From: Trypethelium eluteriae
Lineage: Eukaryota
NCBI GenBank assembly: GCA_051942245.1
Contig: JAVECL010000033.1
Span: forward strand, 1 to 64,000
Direction of reading: 5' to 3'
Length of the DNA stretch: 64,000 nt
The notes under the pieces are model-generated. The model was not told the origin of the DNA. It was given only the letters and a program-made list of their open reading frames with translations, and ran no database searches. A program made the translations under genes and the position numbers. This document shows positions 6,866 to 55,896 of the stretch, in pieces; position 1 is the first letter of the stretch; each line of letters starts with the position of its first letter.

Positions 6866-7026
6866 GGATGACTTACAGCAGCTGTGTTCAACATAGGTCA
6901 GGAAATCATCACTTTCCCTCTTGCACAATCTCAGTATCTCAAACGATTACCATAACCTTTGTACCTATAGCTTTCGTCTTCACTGTCACAAAGGAAAACC
7001 CCGGTTATCCCAACGTCATTTGCTCT

Positions 7027-26881: not shown

Positions 26882-27704
26882 CGCGGCGAAGACGAGACTC
26901 GGGCGACTGAATTCTTGCAATAGCAATCCGGGGGAGAAGGGTGCGTTGGCCAATACAGGAACTCCACTAACATGTAGATCTAGAGTAGCCGAATCAAGGG
27001 TCTTGTAGTGATAATGACGAGCATTTAGAAGAGGTGGTATCTGCTTGTACTGTGAGAAGGGAGGTGGTAGTCGACGGATTGCTGCGTATTTTTCTACGCT
27101 TAGTCGCAAGGCTGAGCGGCGCTCATCGTAAGACGACGGTGTCCGGTGGAGGTGGAGACCGCACATACGGAGTGCCGCATCGTACCTTAGAGGTAAGGAA
27201 GAATCTTAGGTGATATAATATGGAACAGCAAAAAAGATATAGTTAACAAAAAAGTAGGTTATGGATTATAATTAGTAAGGGAGACTAAGGCAGTTAGATA
27301 TAAAAAAGCCAGAAGGCCGGGCAAGATTGATAATATATACTCTAAGCCAGTTGTGGCCCTTAAGATTAAGGGCGCTGTGCGCATACAAATTAATCTCATG
27401 CAGTGCGAACTATTCAGCTACGACGAGAGTTAGAGCAAACAGTTCTTGGATATCCCTCTACTCGTTGCTCGCAGGCATCTAGATTATGAGGTCCAGAACG
27501 CATATTCTCGATGCTTGTGAGCATGTAAATTTTGGCATCGTAGGGTCACACGGTCGGTACACTCGGGAAGCGAAATGGTGCGAATTGGCCCAAGCGTATC
27601 CTAAGGTACGAACACTACGTAGAAAATCAAGTTCCTAGCCTTCCGAAGCATACTCGTCGAAAGGAAATTCTATTCTAGGCGTGTACTACACATCTATTCT
27701 ATAG

Positions 27705-33700: not shown

Positions 33701-36299
33701 TGTGAGTACATCATCCGGCCCCAATCCAACTGCAAGCATGCCGCCATTTCTTTTATTATTACCCACAGTTAGTCCTCGAAAGTAGGCTAGCACTATGGCT
33801 TCTGCAGATGTTATGCGGCCGGCCGAATAGGCTGCAGCGATTTCCCCGGAGGAATGGCCGACGACAGCTTCGGGCTTTATCATCCACGAGGAAAGAAGAT
33901 CAACAAGCGCTACCTGTAAAGCTGTACATACTGTCTGAGAAATCTGCGGCTTGTTTATTTGTGATGCAAGTTCTGGTTTGTGTAATACATCCTCGATACG
34001 CCATGACGGCTTCTTAGATAATGTAGTTAGTACTTTGTCCTGATATCGTATCGACTCTCCAAACGTAGCGTATTCGTCCATAAGCTCAGCACCCATTCCA
34101 TGCCATTGAGCGCCTTGGCCAGTGAAAATAAACCCGATTCGCTTCATAGCTACACTAGGAGATTTCTGGTGGGCGACATGTTCCCAAATGAGCGCCTCGG
34201 ATATCCTGTTCGAGGGTACAACGGCGAAGGCTCGTTGTGCGAATTGTGACCTCCGGTCAGAGAGTGTGTAAGCTAGAGCCGCAGCTTGATACTGATGCGA
34301 AACTCTTGAGATTGCATTGAAGTGGTCCTTTAGAGAATGCTCGTTATGAGCCGAGAATATCAACAAAACCAGGCGACGCGTTTGATCGACTACTGACCCA
34401 TTTCGATTGCACGAATCTCGTTGAGCGCCGTTCGCAGCATCAGTTTGGCAGGTCAAAGAAGTATGAGAGTGCTTATTCCGTAGGTTTCCAAGAGACGGTA
34501 GTTGGCTCGTTGAGCTTCCCTTCACGGGAGTAGGATGGGGAAAATGGCCACCAGGGGAATGAAGTCTTTTATGGTTCTCGTAAATGCGATAACCTGGGAG
34601 GATATTATGCACATGGTCTAAGATAAGCTGTTTTGAAAAGGTTGCCGTCAATATCAGCACTGATTTGCTTCTTGAAGGTTTTCTCACATGAGCATTTGCA
34701 CCGCCGTACCCAAAGGAATTGACACTGACACGACGCATAGTCTGTGGAGGCCAGGAGGTCAAGTCAGTGACGACTTTGGTACGAGATTCTTTGAAATTGA
34801 CTGTAGAAGATCAGTCTCTGGACTCATGCTAATTCCCAAAGGAATACGGAACGCACTGGCTGGGTTCAGATTAATTATCCCCCTGGTCGGCGGAATTTCA
34901 CCATGCTCTAGTGCTAGAACAGCTTTCATGATACTGGCAATCGCGCTAGCAGATTCGCTATGTCCAAGGTTCGGTTTTATCTGCACACTCTATAGTAAGC
35001 TAAGACCAACCCAGTCTCTGCAAATTGCCACTGGGAATCATCCGACGTACCGATCCAATATAGAGGTAGTCGCGTTGTTTGTGTTCCGCGAAGACTTTCC
35101 CTATAGCAGAGACTTCAGTTGGATCTCCTACTGCAGTTCCTGTGCCATGACACTCGAAATAGCCAGTGTCAGCTGGGTTCAGGTATCCGGCATTTCTGTA
35201 GGCATCTCTGATAACAGCTTCTTGTCCAGTAGCACTAGGATGAGAAATTCCGTCCGATCGACCATTACTGTACTACATTAGCACAGTGAAACCTGGCCAA
35301 AGAGACATACCTACGTATTGATGGCAATGCCTCGAATCACAGCTCTGATAGGATACTCGCCTTCCACAGCATCGCTCAATCGCAATATGTACAGTGCCCC
35401 GAAGCCGTCGGCTCGGGCGTAGCCATCGGCAGCTGCATCGAATGTGTGGCAGGTAGATGTTGGTGAGATAGCGCCCAGCTTTGTTGTAAAGATTTGCGCC
35501 ACTGGGTCTGTGATTAAATTGCTTCCAGCAACAATTGCACTATCGCAATCCCCACTTCGAAGGCCAGTAACAGCAAGTTGCAAAGCATACATGGATGAGG
35601 AACACGCGGTGTCAATAGTCAGACTTTGATAGAGTTAGCGAGGCTTCTACGGTAAGGATCTGCTGATTCCTCTCTACTTTACCTGGGTCCTCTCAAGTCA
35701 AAAACATAATTAATTCTATTACTTAGTATAGCCACCCCACCACCGGTTGTCGCATAAGGCAAAGGGTAATCAGCGTCACGTAATTGCATGTTCTGGTGAT
35801 CAGCGTTGAAGTTTCCGACGTAAACCCCAGTTCGCGATCCCGCAAACTTTTGCCAAGGTTCGCCAGCATTTTCGAAAGCTTCATAGGTAACTTCCAGTAG
35901 CTTGCGCTGCGCAGGGTCTAAGCTGCGGGTCTCAATAGGACTAATACCGAATAAGCTATGATCAAACAAGGTTGGATCATCGTCTAGGAAAAATCCTCCT
36001 CGTGTATAAAAGCTCCCGGGACGGTGCTGTTCGGGATGATAAAATCCATCTAAGTTGATTCTCTTATTGGAGAATTCGCGGTATCCAGAGCGCTGCGTCC
36101 TCAACATCTCCCATAGGTCGGATTCAGTCGACACGCCACCTGGCCAGCGGCAGCCTTTCTAAATTAATGATCAAGGTAGTGCAAGGAGGAATGCATTTCA
36201 CTTACCCATTCCCACAATGGCGATGGGCTCAGAGCATGATGAGCGCAGCAGGTGGCGATCGGTCACCGACGGCCTTTCTGCTTCAGCCTGAAAACTCAT
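27705..36299 (-). CDS. Highly reducing iterative type I PKS: KS-AT-DH-CMeT-ER-KR-ACP
   Basis: EPIAIVGM start; KS DTACSSS, ECHGTGT, KPNLGHSE; AT GHSSGE and AYHSHHM; DH WLKDHKV and HPATLD; CMeT ILEIGAGTGG and VLHAT; ER LLQSATGGLG; KR ILVGCLGGLG and YSAAN; ACP GIDSMIGVELRSW; no C-terminal TE or R domain; multi-exon. Confidence 0.95.
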
Positions 36300-36466
36300 C
36301 GTGGTGAAGACGGATCCTCAATGCGAGCTTGATCAGGGTTCGCATGGAAACATGCGGACATTCTGGAGAGTCTACATAGATCCATTCGTGATTGCTCGGA
36401 GTTTTTGGAGCTACCCCTTAACTGCTTTTGGCAGAGCTGACATGGTTCTGCGGCAGAATCCGCTGG

Positions 36467-36604
36467 CCGAACAACGTCGGTCATAGCCCGATTACCACAG
36501 GGAATAACTTCTTATTTGAGAAATCAGGACAGCTGACTGAAAAAGCAACTGAGCGGTCATGGTGACAAAGCTTAATTTCTTGTGGCCATGCCGCATGCTT
36601 TCGG
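36467..36604. promoter_or_regulatory. Two CCG-N8-CGG sites upstream of the PKS
   Basis: CCGAACAACGTCGG (36467-36480) and CCGCATGCTTTCGG (36591-36604). Confidence 0.65.
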
Positions 36605-36684
36605 CAAGAGAATTGATGCGCTGCTAGGCTATACATACTAATATCACTACTGATTCAATGTAGAGCAGAGGTTTTATTCGACAA

Positions 36685-38283
36685 CTACCTCTCTTGTACC
36701 CCTAGATGAACCTCTAAGAGCCCCATAGCCCCAGTGCTGTCTACTTTGACCAGCTATTTACTGTGGTAAGCATAGAGTACAGGTGGTATTTGAAGTTAGT
36801 GCTCACTCACTCGAAATCTTGGATCAGCCTCTTTCATGAGCATCTCGAACTCTTCCCTACTCCTCTGTTTTGCGCCTAGCACGACCCACATTCCTATATC
36901 CAACTGCCTCAGCTGGTACTCCTCGAAGCATGTCTTTTCCCCGGGTTCAGGAATTATTGTGTCGTTTATAAGAAGCGGTGTTCCTTTGGGGCATTGCTCT
37001 AGTGCGGGAATGAACGCACGAAAGAGCCGAATGCAATCAACATCAGTCCAATTGTGCATGATTTGACGCATAAAAAACGCGCTTGCATTGTAGATGGGTT
37101 GTGGTTGAAAAAAATCATGCTGCATGAAACGAACCCGATTCTGTAAGTCACCAGCCCACAGTTTGGTACCCTGATCGAGCATGAGTGTGGAGACATCTTG
37201 TATAATGAAGTCGAGATGGGGAAACGCCTGGAAAGTTTTAGCTCCAGCCTACTTTCTCAAGTACATAGTACAACTGAGATAGATGACTACTGGTTTATTC
37301 TACAGTAGTTACTCACGCGAGCTAAGGATATTGAGATATGTCCACTACCTCCACCCACGTCGACAATGCTTCCTTTTGGCAAGGAACCCCAGTCGAATTC
37401 ATCTCGAAGTTCTTTGACTTGACGGTCAACTAAAGGACCAGTCAATGGCTTCTACTGACCAAACTCGGTGGGTATGCTGTGGAGTCACGTACGTTGAGTG
37501 ATACCAGCCATCGCACTTGCGAATCTGGCTGCCTTGTCTCGGTTCTTTTCATAGAATTGGTACAATGACATGCCGTGGCGAGTGCTGAAGGGCGAGTTAA
37601 CCGCATTACTCTCCCATGGGGCGTTGCGCACGCATGTTGAAGTCTGCGAGGCAGCGTTGAACATTTCATCCGCTCTAGAACATGAAAATTGGCATCAAGA
37701 TCAGACAATGTGTACAAAAGAACTGATGGAGACGGTAGAGTATTAGAGAAAGAACTCACTGCATCAAGAACGCGTCTCTCAATGTATGGTCGCGAGCAAC
37801 CATGGCGCTCGCCGCCGTATGTTCGAACATGCCTCTGCAGTCTTTGCCTTCCAGCTCCTTGAACACTCTGTGGGTGCCTAGGAATCTGAGAACCCGGGAA
37901 ACCCGATCCACGTCCATCCCAACCTTGGCGGCAACATCTTCTACTCGCACAGCTCCTTCCAGGGGCACAGCGCCGAAAAAGTTGAGTTCCAAGGCTACTT
38001 GATAAGCAGCAAGATCATAGTGCGTACAGAACAAAGTACGGAATGTATTCTTGGGACCATTGACCAGCCGCAGAAGATCCGTGGCAGTTGTGTTGAGCTG
38101 GGAACGAAGCGACTCATACTTCAGGTCGAGAGGTGGTCCTGATGAAGTGGGTTGGAAACTTGGGCAAGGATGAGAGAGATCCGAGAGGTGAGCGATCAAT
38201 GATTGTGTGAGCGTGAGCACTGACTTGGCCAGAGCAAGCAAATCCGTGCTATTAGATTCCGTGGTGGACTTTGGATGCGTCAT
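36685..38283 (-). CDS. SAM-dependent O-methyltransferase (Methyltransf_2 family)
   Basis: N-terminal dimerisation/wHTH region (RVLRFL..FEHT), IVDVGGGSGHIS, HDFFQPQP, RQIMHNWTD, KQRS..EF; last exon ends LLEVHLGVQER*. Confidence 0.92.
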
Positions 38284-38656
38284 CGTTAGAGACTCTCGGT
38301 TTGAGGGCCGATATTACCTCCAAGAAACGCTACAGAGAGAGAATGTACATTGCAGCAAAGTGGAGAAAGGGCACAATCAAAGAGAAACTGTAGAAACTCG
38401 GATGCTGAAATATACACTCTACCACTCCGAAATTTCAGCCTTGCGTAAGGCCAGAACAGAAATCTGTCGAAGGTCTTCCGCATTTGAGCAAAAAGGATTA
38501 CGTAACTCACTCTCTGTCCAATTAGGATCCATAGATGTGCAAGTTTCCATGGACTCGTCGACCTTGTCGTGGCTTGAAGACATTTCGAATCGCGAAGTCC
38601 CCAGCTCCGAATCCGATTAGTTGGCACTTTACGTTAGACCGAATAATGTAGGCGCG

Positions 38657-38670
38657 CCGGCAGTTTACGG
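38657..38670. promoter_or_regulatory. CCG-N8-CGG site upstream of the O-methyltransferase
   Basis: CCGGCAGTTTACGG; a near-match CCGAATAATGTAGG lies at 38639. Confidence 0.45.
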
Positions 38671-39633
38671 ACATGAAGTCGGCCGTATAATCGTCGAACA
38701 ATCTGAACTAATGGGTCTACCTTAAGCATCAGCCCACATGGTAAGGCACAGAATCTTAGTACGCAGGTTCCCATCGCTGGCAGGGGTGTAAGTCAGTTGT
38801 CAGCCTTTCGTCCATACGATAAGCGGCGCGTTGTGCCCCGTGCACCGCATCCAATTGGGAGCCGAGGGTTGAGCCGGCGCGGCGAAAACACCGAAAAGAT
38901 GAAATCAGAGCTTGGACGCTTGGATAACCTCTTGGCTTGCTTTCAGCAACGGCGGATTGTGACCGTTGGTTGTCAGATCAGCTCTTGCTCTTTGGCTCTA
39001 TCAGACGACACCACGAGAGGCTGACTACATCACCGCGACTCCGTCACGTTTAAAATCACGACGCGGTCGACCCATTGACCAGCGCGATATCATGCAGGCC
39101 AAAATGATACGAATTACGGAGTCAATCGCCAAGACTATGTCCACTTTGTCCAAATGTTCCTGTATCGCGCTTACAGACTCACTCTATATCTCTCTTCTTC
39201 ATAGCCTTCTCGAAGCGGTTCTGGCCGGTTAGTTTTCGCTACAAAGGATGACCGTAAATAAGATAAGGTTGAACTGGCCGACGTTTGGTCTTGTGCGCCG
39301 CTCCACAAAAGTATTACACGAATCAACATAATGCTGTGGATACAGCCCACGTGTTCTGGTGATCACACGCTGGGTACTGCCCTTGTAAAGTTCCTATTGC
39401 GTTGAATATTAGTGCCGAGGGTAAATCTGGCAATAGCTTCATTATCCTGTGGTTCTACGGAGTACGTTGACACTCAATCTAGGTCTACCCGTTTTAGGTT
39501 ACTCTAAGCGTATTCATAAATCGAGCGAATGCTTGGCACTCCATGACATATCGATCCCGTCCAGCAAGTAGAAATTAAAAATAATATAGGGCCATCTCAA
39601 TTGCCATATCCGCCTATTCGACCTCTTTTTGCG

Positions 39634-40990
39634 CTAAAGTGAGCCGGAGCTGTGGTCCACCTGATACCGCCTTGTCACAGTGATTTTGCCTCTATCAGCG
39701 ATCATCGGCTCAGAATCCGCCGGCGCTTCATCGTTGATTCGTTCGTACGACTTCGCCGCCACGGGCGGGCGGTCGATCAGGGGTACTTCATGGTCAATTG
39801 ATCGATTCGATATCTTCGACAGATGGTCGCCTGGCAGATAAGTACGTGTCGTACTCAAGGACGAGCCCGGTTGCTGCTTAGCCTTTGTGGCCCCGCCCGA
39901 GCCCGTCACACTTCGGCGTGTCCAGGCCATGATCCTGCTGTTGGACAGTTTAGAGAAAACGGGAGGCAACATGGGCAGACACGCGCTGATGATTCCGAGC
40001 ATGGGCTCAAGAGGACCGAGAATGGCGAAGTACCAGATAGTGTAAGTGAAATCGTTGTAATCGATCTCGAGAACGTATTTGAGTCGGACACCTGCAACTA
40101 AGCAGATACTGAGATATCTTAGCTGACTATTCCTTCTTCCTGCTATACTTGACTCAGCTCACCCCAAACCAACACTAAAAATACCAGCCGTAGAAATTTT
40201 CTTCCTAAGTGGCATGTTCAGATTCCACAATATTGGGAGCGGCATTCTGTCCGGAATTCTTAGTCATTGTCTTCTTGTATTCTTGGGCGACATACGCAAA
40301 GATGACCAAATCAAGTGCGGTATTTATTACACCCGGAATGAGGTACGCCAGCTGCTCGTTACCACATTTGCCATCAATCTGCTTTGTTCCAGTAAAATCG
40401 CAGCGGTCGACAGATCAAGAACTCTTCGAGAATGAAGGCAGTCATGCAGACAAGACACAGCGCCATCATTCCATACACTAAGAGGCGAAATTGTCGTTGC
40501 TGGCGACCAAAAATGACAAGGTAGAGATGTAATATGGAAACTTTGATCGCGCCAATGGCTAGGTTCCATATGATGTCTGCGACGAAGGCGAGTAGCCCTG
40601 CTGTTTCGAGCGTGGCCGTCCCTCCATGGTACAAGTATATATCTTGCGCGTGGAGGCCAACACCGCCTGCGACGACCACTAACACATCTCAATCAGTCAC
40701 AAAGCCCTTTCGGAATGTCTCCAGAATAGTTCAAATACCTGCTACTTCAGACGCCACCTCTCCGACGATGAATATCTGCAGCTCAATCAGTCTCGATCAT
40801 CCATCGTCTTTTTTAAGAAGCCTATGCTTACTGTTCCAGCGATGATGGCCCAGTCATTCAACTCGAGCGACTTGCTAGTAAGCCTGCGCGCCCAAATCCT
40901 GATCCCGACGGCAAGCAAATCCAGGATCAAGAAAACCGCAAGGATAATTATTAAAGTCCTGCCCCTGTAGTTATTCGCCGCGAGATTCAT
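39634..40990 (-). CDS. PTH11-like (fungal rhodopsin-domain) integral membrane protein, no CFEM
   Basis: LAVGIRIWARRL...LNDW, AIKVSILHLYLVIF, ICRPLRFYWNK, PLRKKIST, EPMLGIISACLPML motifs; multi-exon. Confidence 0.85.
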
Positions 40991-41777
40991 GACAATAGTG
41001 ACTAATAGGAGTTTTGAGGAAAGGTAAAGCCCAAAGTCACAATGTTGAAAAGATATGCTATTGAAGTACCCGAGTCACAATAGAGCAGATTGATCAAGAG
41101 ACGAATGCTAAACTCATACTCGAATGATCAGGATGGTGGTAGAGGGGCACGGAGGGTGCAGGGGTACGGTAGAGGGCTGAACGTTGGAAATAGTATCGAG
41201 ATTACAATGTGTTGGAATCGAACCCTATGGGCACTGTGTGGGAGACCCGATTGGACTAAAGAGAGATCGTGTCTAGCGCAACGACGTGGTGAGGCAGCCA
41301 GGCTTTGTTCATCCCTCCGCCTCTCGTGCTTTGCATGAGAACCCTGTCCTACGTCCTGACTCTATCGCTTCTCGGCCTTGACCTGCCACAAATAATTAGG
41401 TCGAGGGTGGCACCTGGCTTGGCCAACGCGTCATTTTCCCAAATCTAAACCCTGCGTCTCTCTCTCAGCTGCACTGAAACCTTATAAAGCATGCTAACGC
41501 TCGGCAGTAGCGGCGTTTCAGCTCCACCAACAATTACACTCAAATTTCAAAACTCCTTGCCCAGATAGGCAACAGACCGGTGCGGCGTTAAATTTTCACG
41601 CACGGTGTATCAATGGGATGCAGGGCGTAGGGCATAAACTGCCCAGCTACCCTACGCCAATGCATCATGTACATGCATGTCCTCAGGCCTTTCTCTGGCC
41701 AAGTGCGAGAGCTGATCCGATGGTGCTCAATGTATGCAGGATGACATAAGCGGGCGGTTGTAGGGCTGCATGGTAGA

Positions 41778-41791
41778 CCGAAGATTCTCGG
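41778..41791. promoter_or_regulatory. CCGA-N6-TCGG site upstream of the PTH11-like gene
   Basis: CCGAAGATTCTCGG. Confidence 0.6.
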
Positions 41792-42129
41792 GCCCGCCAC
41801 CTACACGTTCTTAGAGTACAGAGATACGGTGAGCCGACCCTATGCTGCTACCGACCGGGACGTCCCAAGCTCTGTCATCACAACGCCACTGTGGGCTGCC
41901 AATCCCGCAGGACCTCGCCATAAGTGGGAGCCTGGCGTTGCAAGGGATACAGAGTTCTCACTGTATTAGCACGCTACTGATCTAGTGAGTGGGTAAGAAG
42001 CTTTGTATTGCTTTGCGTTGCTCGAAATTCAGGATAATATTGCAGGAGTAGGAAAGATAAATTGGACAATCTGTCCTCTGTTGGTTCTATTTCGCAGGGA
42101 AACCGCCACGAGCTGTATCACGGCTTGAT

Positions 42130-43188
42130 TTAGTAGGACGCCAGGCCTCCAGAAGTGTCTTTACGTAGGACGACTAGAGTCTCATCCCACACCCGCCGTT
42201 GCATGGCTTGACCCTCCAGGGAACGTACGTAGTCGGCGGGTCTAAAATATAGTTTTAGCAGCGAATCACTTCAGGCAAATTGCTCTGTAGGAACGAGAGC
42301 ATGAAGCTAACTTTCAGAGACTTACGGACTCGGTTTTTGCTCACTGATATACGCCCCGTGGGTGTCTTGAGGTTGAACCACCGCTGCGTCCACGACTGCA
42401 TGCCCGGCCTGCTCGGCGATCCTCGCGAAAAGTGTGCGGAAAATTCGAAAGACGATAGTGTTGTCCTCGCGGTGTAAATCACTCCAGGTCAGTCCGGGAT
42501 TGACGGTGTTGATAAGGATATCCACCGCTCTTGTGCGGGCCGCGAGCTCTCGGGTCCAGAAGACGTTAAATAGTTTGGTCGTATTATATCTCCATGGTAT
42601 GCTGAATGTGTCTGGCTGATCCATGTACTCCAAAATCGAGTCTGCGTGCCGCTCGTCAAAAGGCGTCCAGAAATGGACTTCGGACGAGACAATCGTTAGG
42701 CGTGACGCGTTTCCATTCATATGAGCGGTTCTGGTGAGCACCGGGAGCAGTAGTAGCGACAGGAATGAGGTGCCGAGGTGGTTGACTTGTAGAGTAGATT
42801 CATGTCCTGTTGGCGATTTTGCGTAATGAATGGGCTTGTTACCAGCATTAAGGATTGTGATATCCAGCCGATCTAGGCTTTCTGCACGCTTGCAGAATGC
42901 GGACATGTTCTCAAAAGAATCGTAATCCAACGGCCAGATTTCTACGTTGATGCCGGAATGCAGTTTTGTGAGTTCAGACTTGGCATTTTCACCCTTTGGC
43001 ATATCACGAACACCAAGGATAATGCGATTCACTTTATGTTGAGCCAGAATCTTGGAGGTTGCTAATCCTATCCCGACATTGGCACCAGTTATGAGGACAG
43101 TCTTTCCTGTCAGATCGACATCGGAGGATATAGGCCGTAAAGGAACGAAAGCTTGACGGTAAAGGAAGTCAAGTGAAAGGTCGAGCAT
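42130..43188 (-). CDS. Short-chain dehydrogenase/reductase (retinol-dehydrogenase-like type)
   Basis: TGKTVLITGANVGIG, LDITILNAG, LQVNHLG, IVSS, YNTTK catalytic motif, VNPG; last exon after an intron ~42243-42324. Confidence 0.9.
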
Positions 43189-43682
43189 CGTCACCAAGCT
43201 TGCCGGAAAAGGTGGTGTCTCCCGAGACGATAAAGAATTGAATGACCTTGAACGGGGACGGTCGGTTGCTGTTGGAATACCATGGATTGTGATAGAGACC
43301 ATCAGTAGTCTAACCTGTCTAGATTACTTAAACGCATTATCCACTCCGCTAGACTCAACCCAGCGATCGATCTTAGAGAAAAGGCGCAACGTGCGCAGCA
43401 ATCCTAGTACGCGCGTAGTCCGAGTTGCATCCACTAAGATACAAGGCTACTTAGATGCCCGTCTTGAGGTGGCAAATAGAATATAAGGCAAGTCACACAT
43501 GGTGACAACAGATTCCAGACGTTTGGTCAAGGTGGACTCAATTTCACTAACTGATGTCCTGGTAATATCCCAGATAATATACACCGGCAAAGCTATGATC
43601 GCATCTCAAAAAAATTTCTGCCTCTAATAAGAGATGATAAATGGTACAGATGAGAAAAGATAAAGTGAAGTCCATATCTGAA

Positions 43683-45424
43683 TCACGCTATTACAGGTGC
43701 AAAAAATCGAAACCGGTTGTAAGGATCCCATTTCGCTTTTAATGCTTTGAGTCTCTCCAATCTCCAAGTATCATAGCCATACAACTCTTGCAACGATTCA
43801 TCGCCATAGGCGTAATTAACGTAAGCGTACAGTTCAGACTGTCCACTGTCTGCATACATATTTCTACGGATAGTGGACCCAAAATCTACTGCGTTCTGGT
43901 CTAGAGAAACGTCGGAAAGATAGGAGATCACGGGAGAGCTAATGGTAGATTAGAACAATGGTCAGGCAAGAGCTAGCAGTCTAATAGAAGGAGAAGCTTA
44001 CACGATAACTTTCGCGCTTCGGTTGGGTACCGCTGTAGACTCCATAGGAACAGCTTGCACTGCTTGGATCGAATAAGCCTCGAATAGGACGAGTGACGTA
44101 TTGAATCCTGACTGCTCGGAAGTTGTCGCATTATATAGATCAAAGATTGATCGTTGGGAAGACACATTATACTGTTGAATGGTCAAAGGGAACTTCAAGC
44201 GGTTATATCCATCTTGACAGATTTGTGAGCTGTCGTCATTGCCAGTGATTGCAGCTAATCCGGGATAGTTACCAGTGCCATTAGTTATTGATAGAGGGGA
44301 TAGGGACCGGTAAGGAGCGGCATATCGTTGACCTGTTGCCATTGGCCCATTGTATAGTACGCTAAATAGCAATACAGCCTAGGGGATATTTCAGTCAACG
44401 AATCATTCATGCAATTGTGTGATCTGGTAGGCTTACACTCTGGGAGTCAACCGTCGGTATACGAATGAATACAGCGTAACTGAGAAGGGCCGGGTCCGTG
44501 TAATTTGCACTCATTTGGTTGGCTTCAGTGAAGACATCCTCGATCTGATCTGCACCAAAAATGAACGTCTCGTAGTACCATGAATCAGCAGAGGCAACAT
44601 CATAGACTCTTAAATCCAGCTGGGTGATGACTCCAAAGTTGTGTCCCGCGCCTCGGAGAGCCCACAACAGGTCAGAATGGCTTGTGGCTGACACTGTAGT
44701 CGCAGTTCCATTCGCTGTGACAAGACGGGCGCTGATAAGGTTGTCCGCGATGAGACCGTAACGGCCCTGTAGGAAGCCATGTCCGCCTCCCAGAAGAGCT
44801 CCCACAAAACCAGAGCATACACCCGCCCCAGACACTATGAAGTGCATTAGACAAATCGATGCAATGTAAGTTTGATAATGTACCAGTCTGCTTCTGGAAA
44901 TTCCAAAGAGCATTAGTCACCTCTCCATTAAGAGCGCCCCCTTGTATAGTTGCGGATTGACTCTCTTTATTAATCTGAATGTTCTTCATCCCTCTCATGT
45001 TTATTTCTATTCCATTATGGAACTTGCCAAGCGACAGGATAGCGCCATGGCCGCCTGACTTGGCAAGAAATGGTATATTATTTTGATTCGCATACTGAAC
45101 CTTGGCAGTTGTTAATTCGCAGCGCAAGTAGATAATGGAGCTTTAGAGACCTACTGTAGCAATCACATCACCTTCTGTCATCACATTTACCGCTGCCGAA
45201 AATGAGGGATCGGCATAGTCCTGCCATCGTTTCGTTGCATTGTCAAAACCGGTTGAATTCGGAAGGAAGATGCTTGCACCGGGAGAAAGCTTGGGGCCAA
45301 GAAGATCAATGATATCTGATCTCCGTTGGAGGTAAGTATTAAATTCCACGTTATACGAAACGAGTGAAATCGCAGCGTGGAAGAAAAAAGCAAAAGACAA
45401 GAGAATGACAGAAAACGATTGCAT
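43683..45424 (-). CDS. Secreted FAD-binding oxidoreductase, BBE-like (no. 1)
   Basis: Signal peptide; KSGGHG covalent-FAD His; GGGHGFLQGRYGLIADN; WALRGAGHNFGV; YVNYA.GDE; LKAKWDP. Confidence 0.9.
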
Positions 45425-45583
45425 TTTTGCACGTCCTGAAACAACTCAAAACCGGTTCAGGGAAAATGTTCAAATAACTTTCGCAGCAGCGTCCGTTTAG
45501 ATCAAAAGCGGTTGCCTCGCCTGTTTGAGAGCTGATGCGAACTCACAGCTGAGCGGCTGTACACCAGGCAGCACAGCTCATAA

Positions 45584-45597
45584 CCGATAATGTTCGG
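45584..45597. promoter_or_regulatory. CCGA-N6-TCGG site in the divergent FAD oxidase 1 / SDR 2 promoter
   Basis: CCGATAATGTTCGG in a ~280-bp divergent intergenic region. Confidence 0.65.
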
Positions 45598-45703
45598 AGT
45601 GTCTGCCTCAGCGTTCCACAATATCAGATGTTATTTAATGAACGGACGATCTACCTATTCACCCAGACTAACACAACCCCTTCCTTATTCGACCTGGATA
45701 CTC

Positions 45704-46516
45704 ATGGCTGATTCCACCAACGTTTTGATTACCGGCCCTAATCGCGGCATTGGCCGTGCGCTTGTCGTAGCCTTTCTGGCCCGCAAGAACACAACCGTTG
45801 TGGCTGGTGTGCGTGATCCCGCTGCGGCTGCGTCCGTCAGCCTGGCCTCGCTGCCGCCCGCCGACGGCAGCAGAATCATCGTCCTTAAGATCGATAGCGC
45901 CTCTGATACGGACGCGAAGGAAGCGGCTCAGCAGCTCTCCTCGACGTACGGCATCACCAAGCTGGACATTGTGGTTGCTAACGCTGGAATCGGCGACACA
46001 GCTGAACCAGTTCGCTCTACCCCGCCCGACGCCATCCGGTGCCACATAGATGTCAACGTCATCAGCGTCTTGACCCTTTTCCAGGCCGTCGAAACCCTCC
46101 TGCATCAAGCGGCCGCGCCAAAGTTCTTTACCATGTCCTCCAACTTAGCTAGCATAGGTCTCATGGAACATCTCCCCGGTCCTTGGCTAGCGTACGGCAT
46201 ATCCAAGGCCGCCCTCAACTTTTTGACCCGCAAGATCCACTTTGAGAATGAGTGGCTTACAGCTGAGGTTCTAAGTCCCGGTTGGGTTCAGACGGATATG
46301 GGGGTATTTGCTGCTAAGGCTATTGGCATGGACGGCGCCCCTGTGACCATGCAGGATAGCATACAAGGCGTCATGAAAGCTGTAAGTTAAGCCTTGCGAG
46401 CTTTCTGCATCTCTGTTGCTAGACCGATGCTAAAGTGGTTATAGATTGACGAAGCCTCTCGAGAGAAGACTTCAGGAGCCTTTATCTCACACGAGGGGCA
46501 ATCAGTCCCATGGTAA
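45704..46516 (+). CDS. Short-chain dehydrogenase/ketoreductase (Nor-1-like)
   Basis: VLITGPNRGIG, LDIVVANAG, MSS, YGISKAALN, PGWVQTDMG; intron 46382-46444; last exon IDEASREKTSGAFISHEGQSVPW*. Confidence 0.9.
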
Positions 46517-46786
46517 ACCGCAGATACGAGCCAGCTTATATGTACCCCTTACAAGAATCAGAGATGCCCAACGTCCGCCTGAGTTTGGTCGCCCATCTCA
46601 TGCTATTTCTCCTGTGTGCTAACTTCCACTCTGGCATTGATGCGCCCCCAAATTCATAGGCAATGCCAATGACAAGAATGATCACCATCGTTCTAATGGC
46701 ATTTACGCACAAAAGGATGGAGTCATCCTGGTTCGCTACCGTAAATACATAGAATAAAGTTCTAATAAGCTTGAAATACCAAACTT

Positions 46787-49315
46787 TTAATCGCCATTGA
46801 AAAGATTGGGCCATTCTTCTAATGTAACATTGTCCAAATCCACTTCAAACAGTGTCGGTCGAGGAGCGGACTGGGACCATCCCGGATCACTGGGTCCACT
46901 TCTTAATCCAGACGACGAGAAATCAGGGCTGGTACCGAGCTCGCCACTGCTTAGTGAGGGACATAGCGGCATCGAGTCGCGAGAATTGCGGGGATTGTGG
47001 TTGACAGGGCCGTTCGGCATAGACCATTGCAAGCCTTCTTCCCCCCTGAATTTTGGAATGGCTTTGCTAGGCGACGTTACTGGAGGTTCCATACCAGACA
47101 GAGCAGGATATGTTTGGAGCATGGTGTCATTGTGCGTGACGTCCTGAACCAATTCAAAGCCCAGCCAGCTGTTCGTGCTAGCCTGGTGACTGTTCATCTC
47201 ATCCTGTGCACGTTGATCCGCTGCAGATGAGAAATGTTCCGTGCTGGAAGGTAAAGTGTCGATTCTGGCAAGGACTTCATGTAATTTTTGCATGCCGATT
47301 TTCGCAATCACATTTGCGTCTTGGAGCGTAGTTAGACGTTCCACTGCCTTTTCAATGTGTGATCGGCAATGAGCTGCTGTAACTGCGCTCCTAGGCATCC
47401 CGTGTAGTGTTGAGAAGGCCATGTCCCGGAAGATGGAGTTGCGTTTGTTCTGTGCTCGAGCTTGAATCAGGACCTTATGGCTTGGTGCTGCACTGATGAG
47501 GCATATAGCGAGCAGCATTGCGGGCTCAAAGGTAAAGAAGCTGAGGAGGAAAAACCGAGCTCGATGCCCGCCCATCAGCTCATGTAATCGGCTGACACTT
47601 TCAAGCAAACATATGGCAGCCCTAACTAATTGTGTGCGGTGTGTCCATATTAAATCCTGCTTATACTGCGGCATTGCTTGACTCTGCTCCAAGGTTAGGT
47701 GTAGGAGGGGCTGAAACAGTTGGCATAGGACTGCAAAAACTGAGATACGGAGCATTTGCCGTTGCCGAGGTAGCATTGGGAACTGATGGTCCCACTGTAG
47801 GTCAGGGTCGTTCAAGTCAAGTACTGGCGGTAGTTGAGCCAGAAATTCATGACACAGGCGTTCGTAAACCTCCTCAACATAGCTTGGATTGTATATTTCC
47901 GAATTGGCCGGCTTCTGTGTAACCGTAGCAAAGCAAAACTTACTAAGTTTAGCCTGAAGGATACGCTCAATGAACACATCCGGAGCATTGACGTTGTTCA
48001 CGTTTTTGGGAAGAACATGCATCTTTGGTAGATCAACACGGTAAGTGTGGTCTTCTGGGATACAGGGCGAACGTCCAAGAACTAGCGAGAGGAAACGATC
48101 CCAGATGTACAGATTCCAGAATGCTCTGCGTCTCATGTCCTTTTCTAGATCATTGATGGGTGTTTGTGATGTCAGCGGCTCTTCGAGGCCGACACTCAAG
48201 TCTTGAAAGACTCTCACTGCAGTTCCGAGAGCATACCAAGCATCCCGTATCGACCCTTCATTTTTGACATAGCAGGCGTGGTAGAACAGTTGATGTACGC
48301 AAGACAGCGACTGTGGACCTTCAAGCTCCCCACATACTCTGTAGAGCCGTGTTGCTAATCTGTTACAATGCGTACGGATAATATCAACAGGGATACCGAG
48401 TAACTCATCTGTAGTGTGGGTTTTGGACGGTATGAATTGTGCGCTATAAGCACAGATACGAAGTATTAGAATTCCAAACTCGAGGCTTTCCTTATTCGAT
48501 CCTGGAAAAGATCTCCACCACTGTTCGTAACGATTCAAGAATAAAGTTGGATGGATCATTTCATATATCCAATTGACCTCCTTGAAGAAGTGCTGGATCA
48601 GGCAGTTGACGACGGAATGCTTTGGATAGTAATCAAGGCACGCGCGAATCTCTGGAAGCATCCGGTCCGGAACAGCAGCTGAAAAGTCTGACCCCAGCTT
48701 TTGGTTATTGAGGAGGTCGAACTATATGCAACAAGGTATATTGTCAGCGCTATAGAGCATGGAAAAAGGCGCAGTTGCTCGAGCAAGTCAAGATTATAGA
48801 GCGATTGGCCCCACTGAATACGAGATATACAAAAGGCCTGAAAGAGCAGCGTTACAAAAATAAAGGTGCTACCCATGCCTTTTCCATAAGACTAAAAAGA
48901 TTCGACTTGCTTCCTTCAAAATAGCCAAGACACGATGACAGGGACGTCTGATACGAGACTTTGCGATCCAGTTCAGAAGTAGCTGGCACTGATGATGATG
49001 CCTGTCGCGACTCGCTAAGTCTACTCGATCTTGCACTCGGGTCTGGAGGATGAGGTCCATTGTGACTCTCTGCGATCAAGTCCGAGTCCTCTGGCTGCGG
49101 TGCTGCGGTGTTGGTGAAAGAGTATGTACAAAGCTCCGGTAGTCTGCGGCGAATACAATTGGAGCATGGATATCCGTGGTTACACTGGACGTGAGGTCAG
49201 CTGTCAGATCCGCCTTGCGCGGCGTTATCACAAAGAAAAGCCTGACTTTCTGCTTCTTCTGGTAGCATTGACTGCACGCGGCTACGCGCTTCCTTTTCGG
49301 GATGTCGGATGGCAT
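46787..49315 (-). CDS. Zn(II)2Cys6 transcription factor with fungal-specific TF middle domain
   Basis: Spliced CSQCYQKKQK|CNHGYPCSNCIRRRLPELC gives six Cys; EKDMRRRAFWNLYIWDRFLSLVLGR in the large exon. Confidence 0.92.
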
Positions 49316-50053
49316 CTAAAGGCGAAGATGCTCGTCGCAAGGTACGCTTAAGATTCTGCTTGTTGGGATAGTCAGAGTTCTTAACCGTCGCACATCCGAC
49401 GCCTGTTGGTTCTAGGTGGCAGGTGCTCTTGCTAATTCCGGTTCCCAATCAACTGTGCCTGCAGCGTACATTAACCCCGCCTCTCGCGTACATCAGCCTC
49501 GTTTCCAACAGTTCAAGGGATATTCGCTCTCCACTAAAGCTCTGGTAATTCTACAGAGAATTGCGGAACTTATCTTTCGACAAGTGAAGACGGGAACCAA
49601 GCACCTTGCAGCAGGCGCTTACGCTGGTTCTTCGGCCCGTCTTGATCTATCCCGATCGATCCCTGCCTACGCCGCTGCGCCATGTCTTCCTCTTCACGAA
49701 ATCACTTCGAATGACCAATCTGGTGGTTGTAAGGGCGCTGATGGAGACCGGATAGTTTTATGTTGTAGTCGAGCCGTAGCGCTGGCTAATGCTCTCTAAT
49801 TTTCTCTGATGCACGGTGTAGGTTATCTGGTACTGTCAACAGCGGTACCGCACGGCTGAGGCTGCGCTTTCCTAGGCACCTAGATAGCCACTTAATCGTC
49901 ACCCGCTCTCAGCAGTAGGCATAGCCCAGACTAGCTCTTACCCACAGTAGACCTAAGAATGATGTCCTCGTCCGCATTGATTAGCGGAAGCACATTAAAC
50001 GCAGCAGTGTAACTTACCTAAGCGTCAAACGATCCATCTGAGAGCCTGGTGCA

Positions 50054-51933
50054 CTACTTCCTGTGAAATAGAATGCTTTTGTTCGGGTCTGGGAAGTTTG
50101 CGTCTGCCCAGTTGAGGTTCTTTGGCCGACTTGCGCCGACTGGCAGCCGAAGCTCGTAACTCTGCACGATATGGCACAGAATGATCTTGCTCTCCAGCCC
50201 AGCAAAGAAACGCCCGGGACACGCAAATCGCCCATGTCCAAAGACAAGGCTTCCGGGGCCAGTCGAGGTAAAGTGGGTAGCTTTTAGCCCCTTCCAGCCG
50301 TCGCCTCGCCGTAGCCGGTCAAACCGAAAGCCATCGAATTCAGCTGGATGCAAAAAATGATCGGCTGACTGTGCATCCGGTCCAGAGGCTACTGCTATGT
50401 AACTAGATCGAACAAGGCTCTGTCCATCAGATAGCTGGTAGTCTGCAAGTAGCTTACGATTAAAGGATACTGCTCATCAAAGGTTAAGACTTCATCGGAT
50501 GGCATATCGTCAAATGACATGAAAGGAGATATTGGACGTACAAGCACTGGGTGGATTGAGACGTTGAGACTCTTTCATAAAACTGTCTAATTTCGACAAC
50601 TTAGTGACGGTGGACTTCAGCATTGTGCCATTGTCGGCTTCTAGAGCCGTCTCAATTTCTTTGATAAGCTCCGGTGCGTATTGATCCCATCGAGCAGCTA
50701 AGTCGTAGATGACATTGGTAAGGTGATTCGTGGTGGTGTGGATGGCCGCGAAACTGAGACCAAGCTGACGATTGACTATGCTTTCCGGTTCGGCATCAGG
50801 CCCCTCCGACATTTCTATCAGCGCGTCCAGCATATCCCGTGGCCTATCTACTCCGTGTCACAATTTCAATTCCACACAAGTTTTGGGGGCGCCATACCTT
50901 GATCTTGCCCATCTTCACGGGCTTGCCGTCGACGTTTGATTTCTGGAATGAGTATCCTTCGTGCGTTATAATGATGGTACCAGATGCGCCAGATATGAGG
51001 ACTCAATAATGCTCCAAAAAGCTGCAGAACTGGTGGTAAGACTTTCAGATACGCTGATGAGAGGAAAACACATGATGCAAAATCAATGGACGTATTAAGC
51101 CATGCTTTGTTTTCAACCAGCTGGTCTCCCACCAGGATGGCTCCCGTGGTACGTCCCACAATCTGTAACAATGTGTGATGCACCGGCACTGATGTCCAGT
51201 CTCGTAAATGTAAGTGGACAGAGCGCATCAAGCCAATAGCAGAAAGGATCAACTGTCTAACCTTTGCAGTCCGGAAACTCCTTCTCAAAAGCCAGCTTGC
51301 AGCGCTCGCTCAGTGGCCTAACTAGCGTCCCCAATTTCTGAGTAAGGTGGCTATGAATCACATTCCAGGTGACCTTTCCCATCATTCTGTAGGCATTGAG
51401 CGAAGTGTAGGACCCAAGAAAATACTAGACCAAAGTTCAGCTAGATCCAAACATATGACGTTACCTTAGACCAAATTAATGGAGAGAAATCCCCTCTAGG
51501 TATTACCTTATCAACAGCAAGAGATGAACTCGCAACAGACTCAGGCTGGCTTTTCAACTCATCAATATACTGCGGGGGAAGAATGAAGAGCTCTGGGTCC
51601 ATCAGAGGCACTTGCACGATTTGGCCATTTTCCTACATGATTCTCCAATGAGTTTCAACAGTCTCAGGCTGTGGAAGGGATGCGTACCTTCTTCAAAAAT
51701 TCGAAGATCATTCGGTAGCCGCTAACCACATACTTAAAGCTCATCCGTAGCCTGCTAAGCCAGCTAGAAGTTGGGGCACACAATATTCTAATTCTTCCAT
51801 TGGCGAGTCTTTCATCATTTGTGTGAACAACACTGACGAATGATAGGTATAATAAGCCTAGAAGTATTATGGCGAATGTCGAAGATTGAAGAACTGAGAA
51901 TGGAAAATGCCAAATCATAATTCTGAAACTCAT
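50054..51933 (-). CDS. Cytochrome P450 no. 1 (ent-kaurene-oxidase-like clan)
   Basis: N-terminal TM anchor; LSFAAIHTT I-helix; LDSFMKESQR (ExxR); FDGFRF; FGHGRFACPG heme motif. Confidence 0.92.
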
Positions 51934-52246
51934 CGTTGCTCTACCGTAACTTCCGATATCTGACTACCACAAGGACCTCGCAGTCTTCCGGTCTTTCACA
52001 TGGTGGGTATCATAACTTCTTTAAGGTAGGCATGCCTTGCTTGAATAGGATTAATGAACGTTCATAAGCATAGATCTCTCAAAAACCGAAGCTAGAACGG
52101 ATCCTGCAGTGTAGCCGACCGAGAAAATCGGCCGCTAGAATTTCAGCTTTAGGGGGCAGAACAGAGCTAGTCCCCAGCAGAAGCTATCCCTTGTAACGCT
52201 GGGCGGCAGCTCAGTTACTAAACGCTACCACTGGTCAACTGTGCGG

Positions 52247-52368
52247 CCGCAAATGTTCGGCGAAAATCCTTCGGCCCATCATCCGGCGCCGATATTGCTC
52301 GGAAATTAGCATTCGGTGGAGTACATACTCCTACGTATTATAAGCAGAGTCCGGCCGAAATTCCTCGG
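52247..52368. promoter_or_regulatory. Three CCG-N8-CGG sites upstream of P450 no. 1
   Basis: CCGCAAATGTTCGG (52247-52260), CCGATATTGCTCGG (52289-52302), CCGAAATTCCTCGG (52355-52368). Confidence 0.7.
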
Positions 52369-53259
52369 GGCCATACTGATGGTGCTCGGGCATACCCGTC
52401 TGGCCATGCAGTTGCCAATCACACTGCCACACTGCTTGATACAGCCAAGCTCGGATATCTACGAAGACAATGACCGATCATGGCGTCGGCGCTGGAAAAA
52501 GCGTTTTCGCACCCGGACTCCAATCATTACTGAAGCTGCGGCATCCGGCAAGCATGGTCTACGACTTATCCCAGAGACATGCTTCCATCACCATGCTCAG
52601 GGCGTACGGAGTACATCATAGGGTAACGAAACCATCTGTACCGCATTCCTGGTCCTCATGATAAGTTTTGCACCAAGAAAGGGCAATTGGGAAACATTCC
52701 CGATAACCGAGAGCTTATGCTTACACTAGAGCTGATGTTCGATCCAAGATGACCATTGAAAAGGATTTCTGAAGATAGGAGACCAAATTCGAAAGGTTAA
52801 GATACTGCGACGAATTGTATATATATAACCCTAAAAAGAAGAACCATGGGAAGAACAGTAGAGTACAATATCTTCGTTTCGTGGAAAAATGGATTATAGA
52901 CAAAAAGTCCTGGCTTTGCCTCTAGAACCACCAAACAGCCTTCCACTCCAAACACAGTATTGCTGTCAACTACGTATTTTCAGCGTCAACTTGAGGTCTT
53001 CACTTAAGCAAAAATTTTGACTTTTCCTGCAAAGAAAAGTCGAAGTGACAGGCGCTGCTCGAGTTGATGAAGCATTGCATAGAGTGTTTCCGAAGCCGAA
53101 ATGCAAGAAATATGTCGAGGCAAGCTGAAACCCAGAATTTTAGCAGAGACTCGTCCAGTACAGTCCTTGAACATTTAACAATGTGCTAATTACTATTAAT
53201 AGATAAAGCACAACGCTTGTCCATACATACTGGGCTGATCTACTTTCTAGACTATAATA

Positions 53260-55135
53260 CTATTTGATCTTGAAGCCTCCGGGTACTTGATGCTGAAACA
53301 TGCCGGACGGGTCATATTTCTGACTCACAGCCTCTAGTTTCTTATAATTGTCAGCACCGTAACCGCGAATTGGGCTTTGAGAGGGAGCAGCATCGTTGAG
53401 GAAGATGAATTCGTCGTAGAGACCTCGCGCCTTCGTGAGAGTCTCTAGTTCAGCAATGGATTCCTCCATGATCTTGTTGACTTTATCGTCATCGCTAGCA
53501 AGCTCGTAGCCAATGTTAAGGGAGAACCCTCATATGACGTTAGCATATCGCTGAATGAGCCAAGTGCCTATTATCTTTCACTTACACATCTGCGGTCTGG
53601 GAGTCAGGCCTAGTGCGTTTCCGCCAGTTTTCTGTGAAGGTGTAATCATGCTTGTGGAGATTGGTTGAGGCATCAGCACATAAGAACCTCCTTCAATGCC
53701 TCTCACTTTCAAGGATTCATTGGTAGATATGTGGCCCAGATCCACATAAGCTTGCTCGTCAAGATAGAGAGTTGTCGATCCCCAAGCCCATCTGTGAATA
53801 ACAGTCAGCTCCATATGATGCACAGAGATGAGCTGCAACTGCTACCTTGGAACGGCGTAATTTATTTGAACATTGTTGGCCAGGTCAATAAAACTATCAT
53901 ACAAGGCGGTCGAGTCTTCCACGACTGGGATGTCATAGAATGGCTGAAACGCGGAGGGCTTCACTTCGTCCCCAAAGCTGACGTAAGTCGCGAAGATTGT
54001 CTGGTTGTTGATTGCCAGATAGGTCAAAAGAGCTGTGCTTGTATCATTCACTTGACCTTGCTTTTGATACGCCGCCAATGCGCTCATGTACTGGTCTTGA
54101 TAGGAATTGTTGTAAACAACAAGCCCACCCCATGCCTTTCCCGAAGGATAAGTCTTAAGGGACATTCGGGTGACAACACCTTATCCTATTCAGTAGATGG
54201 CAAAGAAGCTTCGACATGCAGATATACGAACCGAAGTTACTCGTCCCGCCTTTTAGGGCAAAGAAAAGGTCGGAGTTTGTTTGCGCGGATGCTGAAACGA
54301 CACTGGCGTTTGCTAATACCACCTGTGCTATGCGTCAGTCATACTGTATCGTGACGGATACCGGAGAGGCTCACAGTGAAACTGATTACATTGTCGCAGG
54401 AAAAGCCAAATCGATTCGTGAGATGCGAAAGTCCGCCTAAGTCATGTCAATCGCTCTTTCTTGTAGGTTGGAGTGTGACGTCCAACCTCCGATGGTCAGC
54501 GCAAGGCCTACTTCAGGAACTCTTCCGCCGACAACTATGCGACCGAACCCTTGTAAGTACTCGTACACGTCACCCCATCGATTGCCATATCCAACAGTCG
54601 CGATCTGAGTTATATTGTCGTAATTGAGTTCGGTGACGTCAGACATCGAGATTAGGACACCATCGTCGATATTTGCCCAACCCGCAAGCGGAGAATGACC
54701 CCCGGACCTTATCGCATATGGTGAATTTGTGAATCCCAGAACTTTTATAGCAAAGGCGACGTCGTTGGTGGATGTTGGCAAATATATGCAAGCTGGAGTT
54801 CCCCATGCGGTGGGGGACCTAGATTTGGTTAGCGAGCTGTGCAAAAGAAGTTTAAAAGCTACCATATCTTACCAATTCTCGTCCGCTTGCGCCGTATAGT
54901 TCGCACCATCAGCTGCAACCTCAACCCTTTGGTGTCGAGCAACTGATAGTATAGAGCAAGCCAGTACTGTAGAGCCGTCATTTCTGACGCTGCTCGGGAT
55001 GTCTGCAGGGTCTAATCCGACAGATTCCAGGAATGTGTTGATACTGGTGTTGCTGAGTAGACCGTCTAATGAGGGAATGACACTTGCAGATGCCGCAACC
55101 GCGAAAAACAGAAATGAACAGAAAAAACCTAACAT
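53260..55135 (-). CDS. Secreted FAD-binding oxidoreductase, BBE-like (no. 2; Sol5-like features)
   Basis: Signal peptide; IRSGGHS; VVGGRVPEVG; ALKGGTSNFG; FLNDA; KYDPSGMFQHQVPGGFKIK C-terminus. Confidence 0.9.
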
Positions 55136-55542
55136 TTTCCACAGGCCCAAGGAAGGACAGCGATGCGGGAGGATGAAAATAGTCAAATCCGATGTGTCGT
55201 GTTCAGGGCAATGTCTTATAAAGTCTACTGTAGCCCTCAGGCAGCGTCTCACACGGGCCGAGGATCGTTTACACTAACGACTACTGACCCAGGGGGCACA
55301 GAAGGCAATGACCAACAGACCTTAGTGCAATATGCAGGCGTCCCGTTCCTTCTTTTTGTCAGGTGCCATGTGCGCTACACGTGCGAATGCAGTGATCAAT
55401 ACCGAGCATCTGCACTTACCAAGCCATCTTATGTATTCTTGGGAAGTCAAACAAAGCAGCATTCTCGAGATTGGTTACCAACGAGCAAGAGCTGAGTCGT
55501 TGGTGAGGCATAAAAGCCATGTGAATGACATGGCACCCTGGA

Positions 55543-55556
55543 CCGATAATTCTCGG
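55543..55556. promoter_or_regulatory. CCGA-N6-TCGG site in the divergent FAD oxidase 2 / P450 no. 2 promoter
   Basis: GA-CCGATAATTCTCGG-TC (palindromic arms extend two more bases). Confidence 0.65.
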
Positions 55557-55896
55557 TCGACGGGTTTCACCAATTCTCCATGCGACAATCGTCCGCAATA
55601 GTAAGCGGCACATCAGATGGGACACGGACTAAGAGCCAAAGCGGCATAGAACATGATGATTCTCTTCTCAGAGCGCCAAGCCCATGTCGAGCAGGGTCCA
55701 AGAAAGTTTCTTGAAAATGACGGAGAACCAATTGGAACTGCTGTTTGCTCTAAAGAAACGCACCGGTACTAATCGCGGTATCAGAATCGTCGTCAGCCCA
55801 GGGGCCGCAATATCAGTATAGGGAAGGCTGGTATCCTAATCCTTTACTTTGCTGTAGCAATGGTCTGCGTCTGACGACGATTTGCAAACGAAAGGA

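Follow-up and report, generated by a model that had tools for sequence, protein, structure and literature searches.

A CCGA-N6-TCGG palindrome in the promoters of a Trypethelium eluteriae polyketide cluster is the probable site of its resident Zn2Cys6 factor

The first 64,000 nucleotides of contig JAVECL010000033.1 of Trypethelium eluteriae (GCA_051942245.1, forward strand), referred to here as the window, contain a ten-gene cluster running from a polyketide synthase (PKS) gene to a second cytochrome P450 gene (P450-2), and the question raised by this locus is whether a palindrome that recurs in its promoters, CCGA-N6-TCGG, is the sequence through which the Zn2Cys6 transcription factor encoded within it (TF1, at 46787-49315) controls its neighbours. 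The cluster is flanked by a HET-WD40 gene and an argininosuccinate synthase gene (ARG1); Pfam and direct reading agree with the gene identities proposed in an earlier, sequence-only reading, and the exon frames that were read in the cluster genes show no obvious break. We consider it highly probable that the motif is the site of a TF1 homodimer that co-activates the cluster, with binding, dimer state and activation all deduced from sequence comparisons. The predicted assignment of factor to site appears to be real and is unusually well supported, and as the principle of cluster-specific motif islands is already well known, the surprise that it offers is modest.

Nine CCG-N8-CGG everted repeats had been listed upstream of cluster genes, and all nine are present where they were placed. 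Six of them are exact copies of CCGA-N6-TCGG (Table 1), and these are the only six in the 64 kb, all of them intergenic and within the cluster. Shuffled windows contain a mean of 0.81 exact sites, with none of 100 shuffles reaching six, and at the genome rate (284 exact sites in 29.03 Mb, or 9.8 per Mb) 0.19 would be expected in the 19.6 kb from 36300 to 55892 (p 5.8e-8). Because the motif had been chosen by eye, all 5,376 four-base palindromes with gaps of 0-20 were scored in the intergenic DNA of the cluster (6,961 bp). The top rank among them goes to CCGA-N6-TCGG (six observed, 0.08 expected, Bonferroni 1.3e-6), no other gapped 4-mer palindrome is significant there, and CCG-N8-CGG ranks first among the 1,344 three-base patterns.

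Specificity lies in the extended half-sites. As a specific operator the CCGA/TCGG form stands, but the looser CCG-N8-CGG form does not, as it has 22 matches in the window, nine of them inside cluster genes, where it is no commoner than the N1, N3 or N7 spacings. Among intergenic everted CCG/CGG matches in the window N8 leads with nine, the next-best spacing having five. The spacers of the exact window sites are 69% A+T, in agreement with the AT-rich spacer claimed for them, and both central positions are A or T (W-W) in 6/6 of these sites, compared with 65/284 genome-wide. With a matrix trained on 11 exact sites, all from outside the window, the nine best window sites are all cluster-promoter sites (in order 55543, 41778, 52355, 45584, 52247, 36467, 52289, 36591 and 38639). 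Eight of these had been listed, and the ninth, with one mismatch and a score of 10.9, replaces the two-mismatch site at 38657 that had been assigned to the O-methyltransferase (O-MT) gene. The symmetrised consensus from 17 sites is RCCGA-NN-WW-NN-TCGGY. Operators sit about 106-787 bp before start codons, one site is shared by each of the divergent pairs FAD1/SDR2 and FAD2/P450-2 (SDR, short-chain dehydrogenase), and the eight cluster promoter regions divide into five with an exact site, one with a good one-mismatch site and two with none.

A metagenome scan with a 13-sequence alignment of the transcription factor (TF) recovered six loci (L001-L006) from 118 candidate stretches, of which L003-L006 are counted once, as L004, because they are mutually 99.8-99.99% identical. 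L002 contains all ten cluster genes in an order different from that of the window, the fetched part of L004 contains eight of the ten in a third order, and L001 is a fragment with the TF and SDR2 genes and one exact site upstream of SDR2. The homologous loci stop inside the PKS gene; SDR2/FAD1 of L004, and any HET-WD equivalent, would lie beyond. At the exon level, the best matches to the window mostly share 40-70% identity. Conservation in homologous clusters had been proposed as a check, and the motif proved to be the top-ranked of the 5,376 palindromes both in L002 (3 observed, 0.05 expected) and in L004 (5 observed, 0.06 expected, Bonferroni 4.5e-5), a held-out sum of eight exact sites where 0.12 are expected (p 7.6e-13). 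Matrices built with each locus left out in turn likewise give promoter sites the top ranks at L002, at L004 and at a paralogous locus, C51, described below, and the same N6 (CCG-N8-CGG) spacing is found at L001, L002, L004 and C51. Exact, good one-mismatch and no sites account for three, one and three of the seven promoter regions in L002, and for four, one and one of the six in L004.

When 13 promoters are compared by BLASTN the sole alignment between clusters is 16 bases long and covers the motif itself, and within the window promoters there is a single 18-base match. As the motif is shared despite promoters that do not align and gene orders that differ, it has been kept or regained while the surrounding promoters turned over and the genes were reshuffled. 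Operators of L004 are often joined to further CCGA/TCGG half-sites (L004:4485-4516 and 15941-15960), an arrangement that suggests stacked dimers, and the second-ranked palindrome in L004 is TCGGCCGA.

Neighbouring accessions on one contig are also seen for the TF, O-MT and PKS of Delitschia confertaspora and for the TF and O-MT of Dendryphion nanum, clusters that are recognised from accession neighbourhood and not from promoter DNA; the cluster family would thus be spread over several ascomycete groups. Delitschia confertaspora has a second TF copy on another contig (P0023) that is sister to its own cluster TF, and which we read as an independent duplication. A 4,278-residue database model (P0186) clusters with PKS, O-MT and SDR1 proteins and probably joins adjacent genes of a cluster through a gene-calling error.

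A second pairing of factor and motif is present in the same genome. Contig C51 carries TF2, which is 54% identical to TF1 and groups with it in the tree (support 100/98), a protein labelled Trypethelium subeluteriae being a further counterpart of TF2. TF2 is tail-to-tail with O-MT2, 64% identical to the cluster O-MT, and the same tail-to-tail arrangement of TF and O-MT occurs in L004. Two exact operators, at C51:53232 and C51:53276, lie 253 and 297 bp before O-MT2 (p 1e-5 for a 500-bp promoter, 0.004 allowing 10 kb). Genome-wide there are just four pairs of exact sites no more than 60 bp apart, two of them at the window and C51 TF loci; the other two, on C767 and C982, were rejected as operators, both being within long reading frames of unrelated genes. 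No cluster gene other than the TF and O-MT matches C51, and a full sister cluster elsewhere was not found in genome searches (next-best PKS 34%, SDR1 35%). The two-gene satellite looks like a retained remnant of a second cluster copy. The satellite (C51:53232-58343) is flanked by a lytic polysaccharide monooxygenase (LPMO) gene of family AA9 and, further away, a GH11 gene. TF2 has the recognition segment of TF1 and in all likelihood recognises the same operators. In O-MT2, conserved positions close to the active site depart from those of the cluster O-MTs, a hint that its substrate has changed. The operators before it mark this unlinked gene as one for a candidate tailoring enzyme.

TF1 has a zinc cluster (PF00172 on P0001, residues 13-45, E 6.5e-6, above the cut-off) with its six cysteines distributed over exons 1-2, and a Fungal_trans middle homology region (PF04082, E 1.6e-22). 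All four motif-associated factors (window, C51, L002 and L004) retain the recognition segment CxxCY(Q/S)KKQKC as well as the RR(L/R)PELC end of the zinc cluster. In the textbook Zn2Cys6 factor the zinc cluster is followed by a linker and then a coiled coil. Here, the distance from the sixth cysteine to the first conserved block (LGYFE) is 66 residues in the window, 65 in C51, 34 in L002 and 76 in L004, and the intervening stretch is unalignable and rich in Ser and Pro, with site spacing identical across the four TFs. The AlphaFold model has no helix at 43-100, in a region (27-229) where the predicted local distance difference test score (pLDDT) is below 50; with a mean of 52 over the whole protein it is too unreliable to carry weight, and a search of solved structures with the TF gave nothing significant (best E 0.068, Cep3). 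It is possible, if doubtful, that this subfamily fixes the 8-bp everted spacing without a linker/coiled-coil ruler, that TF2 is a second independent switch, and that O-MT2 acts on the cluster product. Since the spacing is equal despite linkers of 34-76 residues, the geometry would come from zinc-cluster contact or from basic N-terminal arms (KRKR/KRRR) in the A/T-rich spacer, and these four naturally occurring factors, whose sites are spaced alike although their linkers are very unequal, provide a test of how Zn2Cys6 dimers control half-site spacing.

Zn2Cys6 factors are described as binding CGG triplets arranged as inverted, direct or everted repeats, with spacing conferring specificity and homodimers the rule (in part of PMC10954478 and PMC5082525), and the everted CCG-Nx-CGG arrangement is listed among the established site classes (in part of PMC10954478). 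Each zinc cluster of a TF1 homodimer would read one CGG half-site, the two being everted (CCG-N8-CGG) across the A/T-rich spacer. The motif would then be an upstream activating site, present in one to three copies per promoter and with one copy often common to a divergent pair, through which TF1 would coordinately induce the genes for the PKS, the O-MT, the PTH11-like protein, SDR2, the two flavin oxidases and the two P450s. That the motif is the site of the TF at 46787-49315, the central claim of the sequence-only reading, is supported by its travelling with TF homologues in two rearranged clusters and with the C51 pair. What this provides is a testable predicted binding site for an uncharacterised TF subfamily, tied to an orphan polyketide cluster family that occurs in ascomycetes, lichen-forming ones among them; from the site one can predict the genes that should be expressed together, and overexpression of TF1 or TF2 may offer a way to wake the cluster.

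One alternative is that an unlinked Zn2Cys6 factor other than TF1 reads the sites, either a broad regulator conserved in these fungi or, in this genome, mainly TF2, with TF1 a passenger or partner. The sequence cannot name the binder, and the recognition segment of TF2 is identical in type to that of TF1, but the motif follows TF1-type genes across loci and species, and we regard a different binder as improbable. A motif equally frequent across the genome, which had been named as the outcome that would count against its role, was not found, the N5, N6 and N7 spacings occurring 392, 284 and 293 times; N6 is thus not in excess over its neighbours, which argues against a broad regulator. The motif is, moreover, missing from the promoters of two control loci. 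At C255, the closest other PKS and O-MT pair, the promoter has no matrix match, and the three matches of score at least 9 in 22.6 kb fall without exception inside the PKS or O-MT gene. C656 encodes a distant TF paralogue (34%) with a changed recognition segment, CYTRKQKC; its two divergent promoters lack CCG-N8-CGG, and its sole exact site is inside the TF gene. The first locus (C255:17368-29850) has a highly reducing PKS (HR-PKS) gene, the closest genome paralogue of the cluster PKS (34%), divergent from the O-MT gene and followed by an apparent flavin monooxygenase gene; the second (C656:5189-14450) has genes for a BBE oxidase, an SDR, the distant TF paralogue and a P450, with no PKS seen in 15 kb.

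An alternative that we consider very improbable is that TF1 binds but represses the cluster, or requires a partner or ligand for activation. Sequence data carry no direction of regulation, and TF1 has the Fungal_trans middle region that often gates activity in the Zn2Cys6 family; against repression, however, the sites are 100-800 bp upstream and not over start regions, cluster-resident Zn2Cys6 factors are mostly activators, and the nearest Atlas cluster is automatically named as the family of nscR, NscR being a cluster activator. That the pattern is due to chance, to selection after the fact or to remnants of a repeat element can be dismissed as having next to no probability, for although it was by eye that the motif was picked out in the window and loose CCG-N8-CGG is common in coding DNA, it survives the 5,376-pattern correction and replicates in held-out clusters, and the flanks of the sites do not align.

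Several observations weigh against assigning the motif to TF1 as the switch of the whole cluster. The genome has about 275 further exact sites, and the 14-mer alone therefore cannot define the regulon. The TF and SDR1 promoters in the window have no good site (2/8) though both are conserved cluster members, and neither do those of TF, SDR1 and SDR2/FAD1 in L002 (3/7) or that of the TF in L004 (1/6); the SDR2/FAD1 promoter of L002, unlike that of the window, is a plain exception. The independent comparisons amount to only two homologous clusters and the fragment L001; taken by itself, L002 does not reach significance once corrected (Bonferroni 0.13), and the central W-W is present in 7/11 held-out sites. 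Seven sites hand-picked from the 65 top genome sites were considered as trans targets and rejected: each is the one exact site in its 8 kb, at least four are within long open frames, and none adjoins a homologue-like gene set among the frames inspected.

A scan of the window agrees that the TF, SDR1, HET-WD and ARG1 genes all lack an upstream exact site. The TF promoter is without a good site in 4/4 loci, which makes autoregulation unlikely, and a candidate autoregulatory site at 49396 (score 3.5) was rejected; with its gene site-less, TF1 would be set by upstream signals and not by positive feedback. SDR1 follows FAD1 at about 490 bp in the window (42322-45424) and at 170 bp in L002 (L002:11480-14180) without an operator of its own, and may possibly be read through from FAD1 or share its control. 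No SDR1 site above score 6 is hidden in FAD1 in the window or L002. In L004 the SDR1 gene faces the PKS promoter, and has two operators. Of the further claim that the motif marks the cluster boundaries, it holds that sites extend from the PKS to P450-2 and that the flanking HET-WD and ARG1 genes are free of them, but within these limits SDR1 and TF are site-less and the predicted regulon reaches the unlinked O-MT on C51. The motif traces the outline of the cluster, but it is no criterion of membership.

Among known systems the nearest in form are Leu3 and Pdr3, whose sites, CCG-N4-CGG and CCGCGG, are given as everted repeats of 4 and 0 bp (in part of PMC10954478). As far as they are described there, these resemble the cluster operator in having everted CGG half-sites at one fixed spacing with two-fold symmetry, placed before co-regulated genes that neighbour a Zn2Cys6 factor, and differ from it in that the cluster site has an 8-bp spacer, a TCGG-extended half-site and an A/T-rich centre, and its TF the 34-76-residue unalignable Ser/Pro-rich stretch in place of a short linker and coiled coil. 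A Leu3- or Pdr3-type site was sought and rejected, there being no intergenic matches at N4 or N0.

The sites of AflR and GliZ are textbook cases of cluster-specific motifs. Motif islands of this kind, including unlinked sub-clusters under the same TF, are an established principle as set out in part of the CASSIS/MDM account (PMC4824125), and the present motif resembles them in occurring before the anchor PKS gene and in the majority of cluster promoters and in being rare elsewhere; the C51 pair likewise resembles the unlinked sub-clusters expected there. In keeping with the CASSIS definition of an island, which allows gaps of up to two promoters, 6/8 promoter regions have a site, with single gaps at SDR1 and TF. 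Unlike the CASSIS, AflR and GliZ cases, the support here is cross-species footprinting. Neither motif nor cluster was found in the open-access literature by exact-string and concept searches, which covered articles without supplements.

As to the product, the cluster places an HR-PKS lacking a thioesterase (TE) beside an O-MT with an intact S-adenosylmethionine (SAM) motif, as in the amp (amphichopyrone) and sol (solanapyrone) clusters, where an HR-PKS adjoins an O-MT; the amp cluster, as presented in part of PMC9146101, further includes a pair of P450s, one FAD-linked oxidoreductase and two oxidoreductases of short-chain type. Relative to the gene sets given in that part of PMC9146101, the cluster differs in its second flavin oxidase and PTH11-like gene. 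The PKS was rejected as an AmpB/Sol1 orthologue, as it shares only 37% identity with AmpB across 2,132 residues, whereas AmpB and Sol1 are reported to share 51-52% (same part of PMC9146101). In a ketosynthase (KS) tree, from which the AmpB KS was left out because it aligned too short, the closest PKSs to it (support 100/98) come from Pleomassaria, Lophiostoma and Delitschia, and all are uncharacterised. Delitschia species are recorded as making 4-methoxy-alpha-pyrones in the relevant parts of PMC13117166 and PMC8948627, which link no cluster to them, and this is a lead only. Our guess, offered tentatively, is a C-methylated 4-hydroxy-alpha-pyrone that leaves the TE-less PKS, undergoes O-methylation and is finally oxidised by the P450s and flavin oxidases. 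Co-activators of the AflS/AflJ type have a degenerate O-MT fold without a SAM-binding motif; such a role was rejected for the cluster O-MT, both O-MTs keeping DVGGGSG. Nine of ten among the O-MT structure matches listed are methyltransferases, the tenth being a co-activator cluster, and the matches to solved structures are generic.

Table 1. Cluster genes and candidate operators in the window; distances are to the start codon (ATG) of the gene named.
Feature	Position	Strand	Basis or remark
HR-PKS, KS-AT-DH-cMT-ER-KR-ACP, no TE/R seen	27705..36299	-	Pfam; catalytic motifs present
Exact operator	36467..36480	.	167 bp upstream of PKS
One-mismatch operator	36591..36604	.	291 bp upstream of PKS
O-MT, PF00891 + PF08100, DVGGGSG SAM motif intact	36685..38283	-	Pfam
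One-mismatch operator, missed in the sequence-only reading	38639..38652	.	355 bp upstream of O-MT
Weak two-mismatch CCG-N8-CGG	38657..38670	.	Matrix score 4.2; probably secondary or chance
PTH11-like membrane protein, PF20684 fungal rhodopsin domain	39634..40990	-	Pfam
Exact operator	41778..41791	.	787 bp upstream of PTH11-like gene
SDR1, intronless, conserved cluster member without own site	42322..43188	-	Pfam
FAD1, FAD_binding_4/BBE oxidoreductase	43683..45424	-	Pfam
Exact operator, divergent FAD1/SDR2 promoter	45584..45597	.	159 and about 106 bp
SDR2	45704..46516	+	Pfam
TF1, Zn2Cys6 + Fungal_trans, own promoter without good site	46787..49315	-	Pfam
Cytochrome P450-1	50054..51918	-	Pfam
One-mismatch operator	52247..52260	.	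328 bp upstream of P450-1
Exact operator	52289..52302	.	370 bp upstream of P450-1
Exact operator	52355..52368	.	436 bp upstream of P450-1
FAD2, FAD_binding_4/BBE oxidoreductase	53260..55135	-	Pfam
Exact operator, best-scoring, divergent FAD2/P450-2 promoter	55543..55556	.	407 and about 340 bp
Cytochrome P450-2	55897..57977	+	Pfam

The PKS catalytic motifs were checked on a near-identical database protein (P0039), and both TF1 and the PKS are about 100% identical to database proteins labelled Viridothelium virens, which marks the source as a lichen fungus of the Trypetheliaceae. The HET + WD40 gene is intronless (25334-27180) and about 500 bp from the PKS end, with no NTPase domain seen and with GC-rich WD40 repeats that resemble one another. 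An AA9 LPMO gene (21070-22146) is 5 kb from the cluster, and by eye it looks unrelated to the AA9 gene beside the C51 satellite. Elsewhere in the window, we note a 331-codon frame (12849-14150) with no Pfam match that resembles a mobile-element relic, and an A/T-rich stretch (6480-6860) within a short inverted repeat (6487-6506 / 6848-6866).

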